Of a stretch of DNA of 64,000 nt, positions 40,049-64,000 are shown piece after piece; position 1 is the first letter of the stretch; each line of letters opens with the position of its first letter. The stretch is taken from positions 1 to 64,000 of the IMG/VR virus record IMGVR_UViG_3300047368_000327, one strand, 5' to 3'. The stretch is from a virus. Under the pieces are notes generated by a model, which did not search any database, was not told the DNA's origin, and saw nothing but the letters and a program-made list of their open reading frames with translations. The position numbers and the translations under genes were made by a program.

Positions 40049-40843
40049 ATGTCAAGTGAAAAAATTAAGTTAAGTATTTTTTGCTCGATATTCAAAGGGG
40101 CAAAATTTATCCATCATTACCTAGAGGATATAACTAGGCAGACAATATTCAATCAATGCGAATTAATTTTGATTGATGCGAATTCACCTGACGGTGAGGG
40201 TTTAGTAATAAGCAAATATTTAGAAAAGTACGAAAACATAAAGTACATTAGATTGGACAAGGATCCTGGCTTATATGCATGCTGGAATATAGCGATAAAG
40301 GAATCCTCAGGACAGCTATTGAATAACGCTAACCTTGATGATTCAAAAAGAATTGACGCCCTTGAGATTCAATCTAATTATCTTAATGATAACCCCGACG
40401 TGGATTTAGTTTATGCAGACAGCCTAATATCTAATTTGATAAATTGCGATTATGATAAAGCATTAGTTAGCAGTAGGTATAGATATAATTTCCCCGACTT
40501 CTCCATAGCTAACTTAATAGATTGTAACCCACCACACCAATCCCCCGTCTACAGAAAGAAGCTTCATGACAAGTTTGGTTACTTTGATGACAACTATAGA
40601 TCTGCTGCGGATAGCGAATTTTGGCTAAGGTGCGCTTCGGGCGGATCCAATATGAGGAAGATAGAAGACGTACTAGGAGTTTATTATAATAACCCAATGG
40701 GTGTATCAACTAACCCCGGTAACGATGATTGGAAAATCAGGGAAGAAGTAGAAATCAGGGATAAGTATAAAGAATACGGAACTTTACACAGGGGTAACAC
40801 TAGAAGGATAATTCACAATATGTCAAACCTCTTATCTTCGTGA
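40049..40843 (+). CDS. GT2 glycosyltransferase
   Basis: ELILIDANSPD, GLYACWNIAI, NANLDD, SAADSEFWLR. Confidence 0.88.
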   Translation: MSSEKIKLSIFCSIFKGAKFIHHYLEDITRQTIFNQCELILIDANSPDGEGLVISKYLEKYENIKYIRLDKDPGLYACWNIAIKESSGQLLNNANLDDSKRIDALEIQSNYLNDNPDVDLVYADSLISNLINCDYDKALVSSRYRYNFPDFSIANLIDCNPPHQSPVYRKKLHDKFGYFDDNYRSAADSEFWLRCASGGSNMRKIEDVLGVYYNNPMGVSTNPGNDDWKIREEVEIRDKYKEYGTLHRGNTRRIIHNMSNLLSS

Positions 40844-41550
40844 GCCGATTAGGCATTGTGCAACCAGGAAGGCTCGGTGATATAATTATATGTTTACCGA
40901 TTGCCAAATATTACAATAATTTAGGTTTTGAGGTTTTCTGGCCAGTTCTAGATGAATACCTACCATTATTCAATAATATAGATTACGTTACAGCTTTACC
41001 AATGAAAACAGATATAACAAGCTGCGTCCACCACGCCTATTCAATAACTAAAGGTTTTGAAAAAATAATCGACTTAAGTTTTGGCTTTCATTATAGCAAG
41101 ATTCATCACAAATACCACGGAAACGATTCGTTTGCAACCAACTTTGTTGAAGCAAAATATAAATTAGCTAACGTACCAATTACTGAAAGATGGAATCTCC
41201 AATATCATAGAAACAAGGAAAGGGAAAACAAACTTTTTAATAAACTGCATCAAGGCTTCAAGTATACCTTGGTTCACGGAGAATCCTCACAAGGCAAGCA
41301 CGTAAATTTTTCAGGCGATAGTATAATAAAAGTTAGACCTATTACTGGATTTAACATATTCGACTGGAGGAAGCTTGCCTTAAATGCAACCAAGATCTAC
41401 TGCGTAGACAGCTCCTTCTGTAATTTCATTGAGTCTGATAAATCTTTTAAAGATAAAGAAAAAATTTACATACCAGCCAAACTAATGGAAAGTAAATGGG
41501 GGTGGACAACTCTTGAAAACAATTGGATTATAGATGAGCCAAACAAATAA
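40840..41550 (+). CDS. GT9-like glycosyltransferase
   Basis: QPGRLGDIIICLP...IYCVDSSF. Confidence 0.55.
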   Translation: MSRLGIVQPGRLGDIIICLPIAKYYNNLGFEVFWPVLDEYLPLFNNIDYVTALPMKTDITSCVHHAYSITKGFEKIIDLSFGFHYSKIHHKYHGNDSFATNFVEAKYKLANVPITERWNLQYHRNKERENKLFNKLHQGFKYTLVHGESSQGKHVNFSGDSIIKVRPITGFNIFDWRKLALNATKIYCVDSSFCNFIESDKSFKDKEKIYIPAKLMESKWGWTTLENNWIIDEPNK

Positions 41551-42370
41551 AGGTTTAAAAATTTTACCAATTGAAAACGCTACCCAAGGCTGGTTAACTA
41601 AAGAAAGCTGCACTATAGTTGAATGCCCGCATGATGCAGATTTCATAATTTTCGAAAAAACCGGAGACCCCGAGCTCGAAATCAGGAGGTTAAAACAAAA
41701 ATTCAACAAACACTTACATAAACTAGTTTTCATATTAAGTGGTGATATAGATTTCTCTGACAATACATCCATTTGGTTCTGCTCTAGCTTAAAACCGAAT
41801 CATAAAAACAAATTTCAAATATATACATTAAATCCTAGGGTTTATAGACTAGACCCCGAATTAAAACCTAAAAAAATAAAAGGATTCTTTTCGGGCACGA
41901 TCTGGAATACCCCAGAGAGACAATGCTTAAAGAATCTACCAAATAACTGGGTTATCGAAGATCGAGACTGGTGGGGCGCAGACGAAAATTCTCAATTAAA
42001 ACTATCCAAGCATACATATGACATGATGAGAAGTTCTTACTACACGTTATGTCCTAAAGGTAAAGGCTCATCGTCCATGAGAGTATCCGAAGCATTAGCT
42101 TGCGGCTCGATACCTATATTAATTAACGACAACTCTAATCCATTTTGTGAAAATTATGGAGGCATACCTATCAGGATAACTAAAGATGAAATATCTAATG
42201 TGAATAATATCATTGACGGCCTAGGAAACCCAAGCGAAAAAGAGCTGTTAAACTCGTTAATGTTTTATAAATCCAATATCTGTAAGAATAATATTACTAC
42301 ATGGACAATATGCAGTGGTTTTTCTCATAAAATAATATCAACCCTTAAATTAATTAAAAGAACAATATGA
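41534..42370 (+). CDS. Exostosin-family (GT47) glycosyltransferase
   Basis: SYYTLCPKGKGSSSMRVSEALACGSIPILI is the exostosin C-terminal signature. Confidence 0.75.
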   Translation: MSQTNKGLKILPIENATQGWLTKESCTIVECPHDADFIIFEKTGDPELEIRRLKQKFNKHLHKLVFILSGDIDFSDNTSIWFCSSLKPNHKNKFQIYTLNPRVYRLDPELKPKKIKGFFSGTIWNTPERQCLKNLPNNWVIEDRDWWGADENSQLKLSKHTYDMMRSSYYTLCPKGKGSSSMRVSEALACGSIPILINDNSNPFCENYGGIPIRITKDEISNVNNIIDGLGNPSEKELLNSLMFYKSNICKNNITTWTICSGFSHKIISTLKLIKRTI

Positions 42371-62216: not shown

Positions 62217-62952
62217 AATTATATCATTCTGCAATTATCCTTATAGAGAAATAGCTTTAAATTGGGTCAAACACTTAGAAGCTTTATCTATAGATAATTA
62301 TGAAGTTTTATGTCTTGATGCTGAATCTGATGAATACTTGAAATCTCATGGTTGTCACTCAAGAGTTCTAGATGAATTTAATGATGATTGGATTTCTGGC
62401 TGCAAGCATACTATGCGCCGTACCTTGATATTTAAAAAGTACCTAGAAGAAGGTTATGACATTATTCATTCAGATACTGATGCGCTTTGGCTCAAAAACC
62501 CTATACCTAATTTAATAGAGGCCAACAATCAAGACATCATAATGTCAACCGTAAGACATAGTGGAGCATTCCCCCCTGAAGTTGCAGAAGCTTTTGGATT
62601 TACATGCTGCATGGGCTGGATATTCTTCAGAAGCAATCAGAGCACAATCAACTATCTAGATAAATTCCTTAACACTAGAGAGATCAAGGGCTCAGATCAG
62701 AAAAACTTTAATAAATTTCTACTATTTAATGGCCCGCACCTTAATCCGCACGAGTTTGGCGACGAGCTTACTATGGATAATACCGCAGATCAAGATTACA
62801 ACTACCAAGAAATTTCCCTACTAGCGCTAAGTAAGCCGCTAGTTAAACGGGGCCCAATAGAAGACGAAACATACGTCTGGCATCCAAACACAAAAAAAGA
62901 GGCCGAGCATAAAAAACAATCATTCATAGACAGAAAAAAATGGCTACTTTAG
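62206..62952 (+). CDS. Nucleotide-diphospho-sugar transferase (GT77-like)
   Basis: NWVKHL...CLD...HSDTDALWLKNP...DQKNFN. ATG 62206 preferred. Confidence 0.75.
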   Translation: MNLKIISFCNYPYREIALNWVKHLEALSIDNYEVLCLDAESDEYLKSHGCHSRVLDEFNDDWISGCKHTMRRTLIFKKYLEEGYDIIHSDTDALWLKNPIPNLIEANNQDIIMSTVRHSGAFPPEVAEAFGFTCCMGWIFFRSNQSTINYLDKFLNTREIKGSDQKNFNKFLLFNGPHLNPHEFGDELTMDNTADQDYNYQEISLLALSKPLVKRGPIEDETYVWHPNTKKEAEHKKQSFIDRKKWLL

Positions 62953-63626
62953 ACAAAAAATTAATAGCAGCATTAGTTTCTGTAAATTATTCTGATTTCC
63001 TAGAATTAGTTCTGCCGTTTAATACTAAAATATTTGACACTATTTATGTTATTACAACCAAAGAAGATAAAAAATGCATAGATATATGCTCAAAATATAA
63101 TAATGTTAATTGCTTCATTGTAGGCGAGACTGTTCTAAAAAAGAACGGTGCTTCATTCAATAGAGGGGCGGCTTATAATTTACTTTTTGATAAACTACAA
63201 AAAGACAACTATCGCGATTGGATTTGCCTCACGGACTCTGATATTATATTTCCACCCAATCTTAGAGGGCTTGTAAGTAAAGTTGGCTACGGCCCCATGT
63301 ATTCCCTGCCTAGATCATTTTGCCAAAACGAAAATCAATTTAAAAGATACACCTCTGCTGTAGAGTCAGGAAAGCCCCACAGCCTGAGCGTTGATCGCCG
63401 CAGCCCTAAGGATGTTTTTGGTATTGGTTACATGCAACTTTTTCAGTTTGGCAAACAAATCAGGATGCCTGAAAATTTCAATGACGTTAGTAAAATTGAC
63501 CACGTTTTTAGAAACAAACACTTTTGGAAAAATTGCAAACTTCTTTACGATGTTGAATATTGTGTTCACCTTGGCGCCACACACGTAAACTGGAGTGAAA
63601 GAAAAAGTAAAAAATGGAAAATTTAA
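62940..63626 (+). CDS. GT-A fold glycosyltransferase (GT2-like)
   Basis: FNRGAAYN, LTDSDIIF, GYMQLF, HLG..NW. Confidence 0.65.
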   Translation: MATLDKKLIAALVSVNYSDFLELVLPFNTKIFDTIYVITTKEDKKCIDICSKYNNVNCFIVGETVLKKNGASFNRGAAYNLLFDKLQKDNYRDWICLTDSDIIFPPNLRGLVSKVGYGPMYSLPRSFCQNENQFKRYTSAVESGKPHSLSVDRRSPKDVFGIGYMQLFQFGKQIRMPENFNDVSKIDHVFRNKHFWKNCKLLYDVEYCVHLGATHVNWSERKSKKWKI

Positions 63627-64000
63627 TATCACACCTTGAAGGGCCAAATAAACATATTATTAACTTAATAAAACTTGATGGCGGTGAAGTTGTTAATTCA
63701 ACAAGCAAATGGTTAAGTGACCGCTGGTTTTTGCGCGAAACAAACTTTGCAAAACATTTGACATGTGTCGAAATTAGCCCATTCAAAAACACAAAAGACT
63801 CAAACGTATTCGTTGGCCAGAAGCATTTGGGGCATAAAGCTTACAAATCCCTATCCGATTCACCAACATCTATTGACTTCTTATCAATACTCGACCCCGA
63901 TATCGCACTTGAAGTTTTAGAGTCTATCGATCTCTCCAAGTATACAATTAAACATTTCTGCATAGCCATAAACCCAGTTAAAACAAAAGACTTCAAACAA
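63614..64000 (+). CDS. FkbM-like methyltransferase homologue, 3' truncated by window edge
   Basis: Open frame MENLISHLEG...SIDFLSILDPDIALEVLESIDLSKYTIK to the end of the window. Confidence 0.45.
   Translation, partial: MENLISHLEGPNKHIINLIKLDGGEVVNSTSKWLSDRWFLRETNFAKHLTCVEISPFKNTKDSNVFVGQKHLGHKAYKSLSDSPTSIDFLSILDPDIALEVLESIDLSKYTIKHFCIAINPVKTKDFKQ

Follow-up and report, generated by a model that had tools for sequence, protein, structure and literature searches.

Chloroviruses such as PBCV-1 encode Gmd, GMER, soluble glycosyltransferases (GTs) and a methyltransferase domain, and their capsid protein is glycosylated in the cytoplasm by a process independent of the endoplasmic reticulum/Golgi or lipid carriers (PMC5408694). 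Here we analyse a stretch of 64,000 nucleotides of viral DNA (the window), corresponding to bases 1–64,000 of the 103,642-bp linear IMG/VR record IMGVR_UViG_3300047368_000327 (termed G000), which contains the first two thirds of an island of glycan-synthesis genes. As in chloroviruses, the virus encodes its own nucleotide-sugar synthesis (Gmd and GMER/Fcl), several soluble GTs with neither signal peptide nor membrane anchor, and a methyltransferase function. By analogy, the system would work most like chlorovirus capsid glycosylation. The differences are nevertheless large: chloroviruses are eukaryotic giant viruses with ~six GTs and no sulfotransferases, whose acceptor and glycan have been chemically proven, whereas the virus studied here is a tailed phage with ~20 GTs, six sulfotransferases and a pyruvyl transferase, known from its genes alone. 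The soluble enzymes encoded by this phage very probably make sulfated, methylated and pyruvylated glycans with L-fucose and probably also L-galactose, no carrier or export steps being encoded.

Three other described systems share some of these features. Mycobacteriophages carry glycans on the C-termini of capsid and tail-tube proteins (Freeman et al. 2023, as reported in PMC12619734) and, as would be so in the present case, phage GTs and methyltransferases encoded near structural genes decorate the virion proteins of a siphovirus; in that account, the cassettes are small, with few genes, the host is actinobacterial and neither sulfation nor nucleotide-sugar supply appears. The host recognition cluster (HRC) of pelagimyophages and cyanomyophages is a hypervariable island with a mean size of 34–45 kb, located between VrlC and gp14 of T4-like myoviruses (PMC7029224). 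It likewise occurs in large marine phages, is rich in GTs and sugar-nucleotide enzymes and has no known target, but it contains the tail-fibre genes, sulfotransferases are not mentioned and its authors favour the modification of host O-chains (PMC7029224). Our phage has instead a lambda-like siphovirus backbone and its fibre genes are set apart from the island by the replication module; judged by this location, the island is not a member of the HRC as defined. Flagellin glycosylation islands (Maf/DUF115, CMP-nonulosonic acids) are hypervariable loci whose soluble cytoplasmic enzymes glycosylate a structural protein before its assembly. A variable slot of a relative of our phage holds a Maf/CST-I-like gene, a CMP-sugar synthetase and an aldolase reminiscent of them, although there is no flagellin here and the range of GT families is far larger. 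Sulfated glycans, for their part, characterise eukaryotic matrices and algal walls but are seldom encountered in bacteria. In the literature that we searched, we found no description of sulfotransferase-rich glycan islands in phages, nor of any phage-made sulfated glycan.

Enzymes of the glycan island

The island extends from position 40049 to contig position 77219 (~37 kb), with a lambda-like tail module on its left and the replication and fibre genes on its right. All genes from 40049 onward are on the plus strand and their open reading frames (ORFs) are tightly packed, often overlapping. A preliminary description, made from the letters of the window alone, had named a series of sugar-nucleotide, transferase and tailoring enzymes in this region, and searches with Pfam, PDB, ESM Atlas and predicted folds recovered nearly all of them on this strand. 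Its account has to be amended in that the run of glycan genes is interrupted across 47840–54519 and continues for 13 kb past the end of the window. For comparison we used above all G001, a relative of 213,830 bp rated 100% complete, which is collinear with our contig at 50–90% protein identity (contig positions 1–103 kb corresponding to 58.6–159 kb of G001).

The supply of nucleotide sugars comprises five enzymes in the contig, including the four that had been proposed for the window. Gmd (GDP-mannose 4,6-dehydratase, 43957–45009; PF16363, E 1.2e-102; 80% identical in G001) and Fcl/GMER (GDP-L-fucose synthase, 45006–45962; phmmer E 6.5e-102 to the Escherichia coli GDP-fucose synthetase 1bsv, residues 2–313) are both full length and adjacent, with a 4-bp overlap, and make up the de novo pathway to GDP-L-fucose. 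They are followed by a short-chain dehydrogenase/reductase of the UDP-hexose 4-epimerase or UDP-glucuronate decarboxylase type (45981–46892; E 2e-46 to PDB 4zrm and 3e-40 to UXS), preceded by a GTGTA promoter-like motif, and by a 279-aa UDP-glucose 6-dehydrogenase-like protein (46889–47728). The latter matches only PF03721 and PF00984 (the UDPG_MGDP_dh N-terminal and central domains) and lacks the C-terminal UDP-binding domain, its PDB matches spanning residues ~109–303 of 424-aa enzymes; as it is equally short in G001, it is probably not a pseudogene. In Pfam, Fcl and the short-chain dehydrogenase/reductase both match epimerase families. The last gene of the island, beyond the window (contig positions 76227–77219), encodes a GDP-mannose 3,5-epimerase (E 2e-95 to plant GME). 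Its presence alongside Gmd and Fcl suggests that the phage can make both GDP-L-galactose and GDP-L-fucose. A NUDIX protein was considered as the Gmm partner of gmd–fcl and rejected, since its PDB matches are of the MutT/MTH1 type.

The first five genes of the island form a cassette missing in G001. It opens with a GT2 glycosyltransferase (40049–40843; PF00535, E 2.3e-11; no G001 homologue), followed by a 236-aa protein (40840–41550) with neither Pfam match nor membrane segment, a GT47/RXYLT1-like glycosyltransferase in a short soluble form (41534–42370; PF03016 and PF24785, E 1.3e-9), an FkbM-family methyltransferase (42367–42942; PF05050, E 1.6e-10) and a polysaccharide pyruvyl transferase (42939–43916; PF04230, PS_pyruv_trans, E 3.7e-11). 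Every one of the 62 metagenomic homologues of the GT47/RXYLT1-like protein has the PF03016 and PF24785 domains. The pyruvyl transferase agrees with what had been described, as do the GT2, GT47, GT92, GT32, GT23 and GT77 assignments in the window, while that of the 236-aa protein as a GT, although possible, has no database support. FkbM methylases had been mentioned in the plural: one such gene is present in the window, and the two other methyltransferases lie beyond it and are of the Methyltransf_24 type.

Downstream of the interruption come a conserved 213-aa protein (54737–55378; no Pfam match, 73% identical in G001) and two GT-A-like proteins, one GT2-like (55375–56304; ESM Atlas 0.98–0.99 to viral clusters with PF00535; 86% identical in G001) and one GT8/GT77-like (56301–57152; ESM Atlas 0.96 to viral clusters with PF01501/PF03407 members). 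Neither of these two has a Pfam match and their ESM Atlas clusters are almost wholly viral. Further downstream, interspersed with sulfotransferases, we found a GT92/GT2_4 glycosyltransferase (58618–59505; PF01697 28.4 bits, PF13704 28.8 bits), a GT32 (59489–60139; PF04488, Gly_transf_sug with the DXD sugar-binding region, E 3.6e-15), a NodZ-like (GT23) fucosyltransferase (60714–61577; PF05830, E 1.6e-12), a GT77 (62191–62952; PF03407, Nucleotid_trans, E 7.7e-17; 84–88% identical in all relatives) and a weak GT2-like protein (62940–63626; PF00535, E 0.009, below the cut-off). The window ends within a conserved 156-aa protein, of which only the start is included (63614–64000), and the island runs on with a weak GT8, a GT90, a second NodZ, a GT2+GT7C protein, a GT17, a CAP59/GT2-like gene, a GT31 and a weak third NodZ, together with two Sulfotransfer_2 and two Methyltransf_24 proteins, a GHKL ATPase and the epimerase already mentioned. 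In total, the contig encodes ~12 GTs above Pfam cut-offs plus ~8 weaker ones, five Pfam sulfotransferases plus one recognised at the fold level, three methyltransferases and one pyruvyl transferase. GT families such as these are Golgi-anchored in eukaryotes; their members here are short and have no membrane anchors.

Upstream of the island, a minus-strand block (32005–39889) contains ssb and three GT-B-type genes, the latter coinciding with the three GTs that had been noticed at 32.7–38.8 kb. They are a GT9-like protein corresponding to the C-terminal part of heptosyltransferases (32762–33970; PF01075, 26 bits against a cut-off of 22; 56% identical in G001), a 641-aa GT1/GT4-like protein with a DUF4214-like segment (34371–36296; weak PF00534 and PF13946; 70% identical in G001) and a confidently modelled core GT-B (GT4-type) glycosyltransferase (37754–38836; AlphaFold2 mean predicted local distance difference test score, pLDDT, of 92.6), the top PDB matches of which are all GT-B enzymes. 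A DUF6165 protein is encoded between two of these GT-B genes (33967–34374; PF19662, E 7.7e-8). The best structural match of the core GT4 in the PDB is a chlorovirus NY-2A glycosyltransferase (3oy2, E 4e-13, template modelling (TM) score 0.68), but as all GT4 folds are alike, this likeness can be only a pointer. The core GT4 has 2083 homologous clusters (the best 120 at 56–91% identity, ~361 aa), some of them labelled glycosyltransferase or PF00534, on contigs of up to 219 kb from TARA, JGI, ENA, Logan and NCBI. Judging from these homologues, it is conserved across the whole phage lineage.

The four sulfotransferases that had been claimed for the window were found as well. Three are Sulfotransfer_2 proteins (57145–57831, PF03567, E 2.4e-14; 60136–60717, E 7.2e-20; 61578–62216, E 8.3e-16) that score 54–73 bits against a curated cut-off of 22; the first keeps the motifs binding the sulfate donor 3′-phosphoadenosine 5′-phosphosulfate (PAPS). 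Across nine aligned paralogues from G000 and G001, the PAPS-binding loops (PKxGxT/S for the 5′-phosphosulfate and RNPxxRxxS for the 3′-phosphate) have K15, R67, N68, P69 and S75 invariant, residues whose retention suggests that these sulfotransferases are functional. The fourth is a divergent protein (57800–58621) without Pfam or PDB sequence match. In its AlphaFold2 model (pLDDT 86.2), all nine significant (E ≤ 0.001) and most of the other listed Foldseek matches in the PDB are PAPS sulfotransferases, with TM-scores of only 0.3–0.45; an R-x-G-T-T-S-L loop is invariant in this family, which consists of 29 clusters confined to this phage lineage. We regard it with moderate confidence as a sulfotransferase. 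Sulfotransfer_2 matches rise to 10 in G001, which has a second sulfotransferase cluster, and to 11 in another relative, G002. By comparison, only five of 50,697 isolated-phage records had a match in our sulfotransferase search, and true bacterial homologues are only 31–38% identical.

G001 and G002 also contain an open frame of 271–284 aa (276 aa in G001) in which residues 14–99 match kinases of adenosine 5′-phosphosulfate (APS) and contain the D-x-V-R...LGFS-x-EDR motif. The protein lacks the lid region, and its C-terminal half corresponds to an NadM-type NMN adenylyltransferase (GRYQPFHIGH, SATKIR). For these reasons we did not count it as a source of PAPS; it may serve in NAD salvage instead, and the host may be the default PAPS source. 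In G001 this gene (minus strand) adjoins a gene for a DUF1501 protein (sulfatase-superfamily-like, plus strand, E 1.7e-111).

Phage lineage, cassette turnover and expression signals

The phages that carry this island are very large marine siphoviruses of an uncultured lineage, which is widespread and abundant in TARA, JGI and ENA data. Using the GT17-like protein, we found seven related IMG/VR contigs, and at least eight independent assemblies contain the island with the same gene order, formed by a conserved backbone into which different cassettes are swapped. The island proteins shared by G000 and G001 are the best conserved of the genome (70–90% identity, against 33–66% for tail and fibre proteins), and the backbone is probably under strong purifying selection. 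Among the seven close relatives, presence is variable for the GT32, a pair of GT8-like and GT90 genes, the second NodZ, the CAP59-like gene and one sulfotransferase. The GT32 at 59489 is missing or partial in all seven, and the weak GT2-like gene at 62940 is present in two of the seven. Instead of the first five genes of the island, G001 has a GT2, a Maf/CST-I-like protein, a CMP-sugar synthetase and an aldolase; its Maf-like match is below the Pfam cut-off, and there is no such gene in our contig.

Known phages are only distantly related to this lineage. Megablast of the island against the 50,697 phage records gave no match, and the protein matches in cultured phages are remote (42% identity for tail L and ~28% for DnaE). 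Moraphages, considered as possible relatives, are contractile-tailed, PolB-type phages (PMC12619734) and hence represent a different lineage. When genome contigs were scanned with the sulfotransferases, we mostly retrieved contigs of this same phage lineage inside metagenome-assembled genomes (MAGs) labelled as Cellvibrionales, Neomarinimicrobiota, Thermodesulfobacteriota, Halobacteriovorax and Flavobacteriaceae. The Cellvibrionales-labelled contig, 210.8 kb long and ~90% identical to G001, is a whole phage genome. These contigs, which include JAYQMT010000004.1 and JAYPYG010000001.1, are likely mis-binned. The bins disagree on the host (Flavobacteriaceae in three MAGs, Cellvibrionales and others); one bin-mate genome has 38–39% GC, and the identity of Gmd to that of bin-mates is uninformative in this respect.

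Two types of promoter-like elements were found. Sigma70-type extended -10 elements (TTGACw-N17-TGnTAwwAT) precede the minus-strand operon and the replication genes, ending 7–9 nt before the start codons. A second element, GTGTAwwAwATA, precedes the tube, tape-measure, J-like and fibre genes and, likewise, the island operons and the genes for ribonucleotide reductase (RNR) and a ClpB-like protein. It ends 5–19 nt before the start codons, occupies orthologous positions in G000 and G001, and occurs in the window at 47825, 50730, 53691 and 23263, with variants near 231, 1686 and 45981. This distribution gives a suggestive layout in two tiers: the conserved GT-B genes lie next to ssb in an early operon, and the variable GT-A and sulfotransferase genes have the promoter class of the virion genes. 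The two operons diverge from an intergenic control region (39890–40048) where sequence inspection and repeat search revealed four copies of AGGTCTnCGTAAGA at 39908–39975. On either side of them lies one copy of a promoter-plus-start segment (TATAACATATAAT...AATGTCAAGT), at 39856–39895 and 40024–40061. The whole array (39856–40061) may be an operator controlling both operons. Promoters ending 5–9 nt before start codons imply leaderless or near-leaderless mRNAs. Shine-Dalgarno sequences showed no enrichment (9 of 90 genes, 10%, against a background of 12%), as expected from leaderless starts, and this feature is therefore no pointer to Bacteroidota; the Bacteroidetes TAnnTTTG motif was not enriched upstream of genes either.

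Acceptor of the glycan

The membrane steps of surface polysaccharide synthesis were looked for with a Kyte-Doolittle hydrophobicity scan, a crude predictor. It detected no hydrophobic segment in any GT, sulfotransferase or methyltransferase, no ORF with more than four such segments in G000 or the complete G001, and no candidate flippase, polymerase or ABC permease (6–14 segments) in either of them. The Bac_transf initiating phosphoglycosyl transferase (PF02397) was absent from five records (G000–G004) under conditions in which controls matched, the WecA-type enzymes (PF00953) not having been searched as a family. The soluble nature of the enzymes, pointed out in the preliminary description, thus holds for the contig, and the lack of flippase, polymerase, initiating and export genes, which it also noted, extends to the rest of the contig and to G001. 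With no initiating enzyme or membrane step found, the block does not appear to be a Wzx/Wzy- or ABC-dependent surface polysaccharide locus.

Instead, these enzymes might glycosylate virion proteins as a self-contained system of the cytoplasm, an interpretation that we regard as about evenly balanced. The conserved GT-B enzymes (the core GT4 at 37754 and the GT4/GT9 genes of the early minus-strand operon) would start chains directly on a soluble acceptor in the host cytoplasm. The variable GT-A enzymes would then extend these chains with L-fucose, L-galactose and other sugars, and they would finally be capped by O-methyl groups, pyruvate ketals and sulfate, the PAPS for the last of these being made by the host or boosted by the phage. 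The acceptor would most likely be virion proteins of the phage itself, in its tail, fibres or head, giving a negatively charged, strain-variable glycan coat. We favour virion proteins because carrier machinery is missing, the phage is apparently lytic, cassettes turn over around a conserved core in an antigen-like manner, the promoter class is shared with structural genes, and chloroviruses and mycobacteriophages offer precedents. More tentatively, and with chances somewhat below even, a sulfated, methylated and pyruvylated L-fucose/L-galactose glycan would be built directly on virion proteins without membrane or lipid carrier by ~20 anchor-less Golgi-type GTs and 6–11 sulfotransferases, as a fucoidan-like coat diversified by cassette exchange between strains; as a sulfated glycoconjugate, it would be without precedent among bacterial viruses. 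That such a coat might mimic algal polysaccharide and bait polysaccharide-degrading hosts, as suggested in the preliminary description, is speculation.

Several observations weigh against virion proteins as the acceptor of a self-made sulfated glycan. The contig encodes no PAPS synthesis genes (APS kinase), a check that had been called for at the outset, and ATP sulfurylase (PF01747) and PAPS_reduct/CysD (PF01507) had no match in the records searched, where controls matched. G000 itself is 73% complete (CheckV). The tail-tube-like and capsid-like candidates have no Ser/Thr-rich tails that could serve as acceptor motif. The GTGTA element also precedes the RNR and ClpB-like genes, so that it is only a putative late promoter. 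Furthermore, the cytoplasmic acceptor proposed at first, preferably virion proteins and not a host capsule, agrees with the lack of carrier and export machinery but does not follow from solubility: in the O-antigen and capsule pathways of bacteria, too, the peripheral GTs are soluble, and their substrates sit on lipid carriers in the membrane, so that host lipid-linked acceptors are compatible with the enzymes found here; the initiating enzyme and the exporter could both come from the host. Finally, the only published reading of comparable GT-rich marine phage islands, namely the HRC of pelagimyophages and cyanomyophages, is the modification of host O-chains (PMC7029224).

The last two points lead to the strongest competing explanation, the remodelling of the host envelope, which we consider unlikely but to be taken seriously. 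The phage enzymes would act at the inner face of the host membrane on undecaprenyl-linked intermediates of host O-antigen, capsule or general O-glycosylation, to be exported by the host Wzx or ABC systems, and the outcome would be to block superinfection or to alter the stickiness of infected cells. GT2, GT8, GT9, GT4, pyruvyl transferase, Gmd/Fcl and Ugd are indeed typical of O-antigen and capsule loci, and cassette variability suits a surface polymer equally well. Nevertheless, the initiating, flipping, polymerising and exporting genes were not found even in the complete relative, GT47, GT77, GT92, GT17, GT31, GT90 and GT32 fall outside the usual lipopolysaccharide/capsule set, and some twenty different GTs suggest a complex non-repeating glycan more than a repeat unit. 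The time available is a further difficulty. A tyrosine integrase had no match in G000, G001 or G002 (control genomes matched); the phage is thus probably lytic, which would exclude long-term lysogenic conversion and leave little time to remodel the host surface, and it is hard to see why ~37 kb of DNA should be devoted to a surface that lasts for a single latent period.

Soluble enzymes without carriers would also be compatible with another cytoplasmic product, either modified non-structural proteins of host or phage, or a free sulfated oligosaccharide or glycolipid that might act as a compatible solute, as a signal or decoy, or as a matrix set free when the cell lyses. The failure to find an acceptor motif in the virion candidates and the chaperone-like genes that accompany the island (GHKL ATPase, ClpB-like and DnaJ-like) can be cited in its support. 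We consider it quite improbable, since it has no phage precedent, strain-level cassette swapping is typical of exposed antigens and not of metabolites, and nothing in the genes points to a specific non-virion target. Much less probable still is DNA hypermodification, in which the GTs would decorate modified bases of phage DNA as in T-even phages and others with glycosylated hydroxymethyl bases. GT-B genes do lie beside ssb in the early operon, and DNA-hypermodifying phage GTs are known (as cited in PMC12619734), but the ThyA-family dCMP/dUMP hydroxymethylase (PF00303) was absent from five records including the complete one (control genomes matched), which makes DNA an unlikely acceptor, and nothing in those systems corresponds to GDP-fucose, GDP-galactose, sulfation, pyruvylation or ~20 GTs. 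An assembly chimera or a mis-called bacterial polysaccharide locus, feared initially and seemingly backed by the binning of related contigs into MAGs of several phyla, is scarcely credible: those contigs are themselves phage genomes of this lineage, phage modules lie on both sides of the island, GC is even (0.34–0.39 in the island and 0.35–0.41 in the tail module) and gene order is the same in G001 and the six other IMG/VR contigs.

Neighbouring modules and implications

The left part of the window (231–32008, plus strand) is a lambda-like siphovirus tail module (PF10145, PF05939, PF05100, PF14464+PF00877, PF13550) syntenic with 58.6–89.3 kb of G001. It encodes a tube-like protein, a tape measure (PF10145), Phage_min_tail/minor tail proteins, tail L (PF05100), a tail-K-type protein with JAB and NlpC/P60 domains, a J-like Phage-tail_3 tip protein and an 1100-aa ORF. 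The tape measure has 3322 aa here (1686–11654) and 4460 aa in G001 (59987–73369), lengths that imply, as predicted from these genes, extremely long tails. SSB in the minus-strand block (38856–39248) matches PF00436 with E 7.5e-22. The genes downstream of the island encode a RecA-like protein, DnaB, primase, a PD-(D/E)XK nuclease, a split DnaE and a ClpB-like ATPase; fibre genes with Peptidase_S74 chaperone domains follow 15 kb past the island, after the replication module. No tRNA genes were found in the contig.

The insert that interrupts the glycan genes (47840–53683, plus strand) comprises the RNR large subunit, the MutT-like NUDIX protein, a papain-like protease, two small ORFs and the RNR small subunit. 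The protease, a papain-family (C1) peptidase (50745–51944), combines a Pro/Glu-rich linker with a C-terminal membrane segment; a small lipoprotein-like ORF near it (52269–52592) has a weak EF-hand match, and both are absent from G001. The chaperone-like set is formed by the GHKL (HATPase_c) protein of 580 aa inside the island (contig positions 64091–65833; 79–92% identical in all relatives), the ClpB-like AAA+ protein of 804 aa and a weak DnaJ-like protein in the window (53986–54519).

The phage genomes of this lineage mis-binned in public MAGs of several phyla can distort the metabolic annotation of those bacteria. The lineage also represents a compact library of soluble single-domain GT47, GT77, GT92, GT17, GT31, GT90 and GT23 enzymes and of sulfotransferases, whose expression is expected to pose few difficulties. 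If the glycan is on the particle, it would alter the sticking of these marine phages to gels, mucus and algal surfaces as well as their survival. Grazers and enzymes would then see the phage differently, and carbon- and sulfur-rich matter would be added to the viral fraction.

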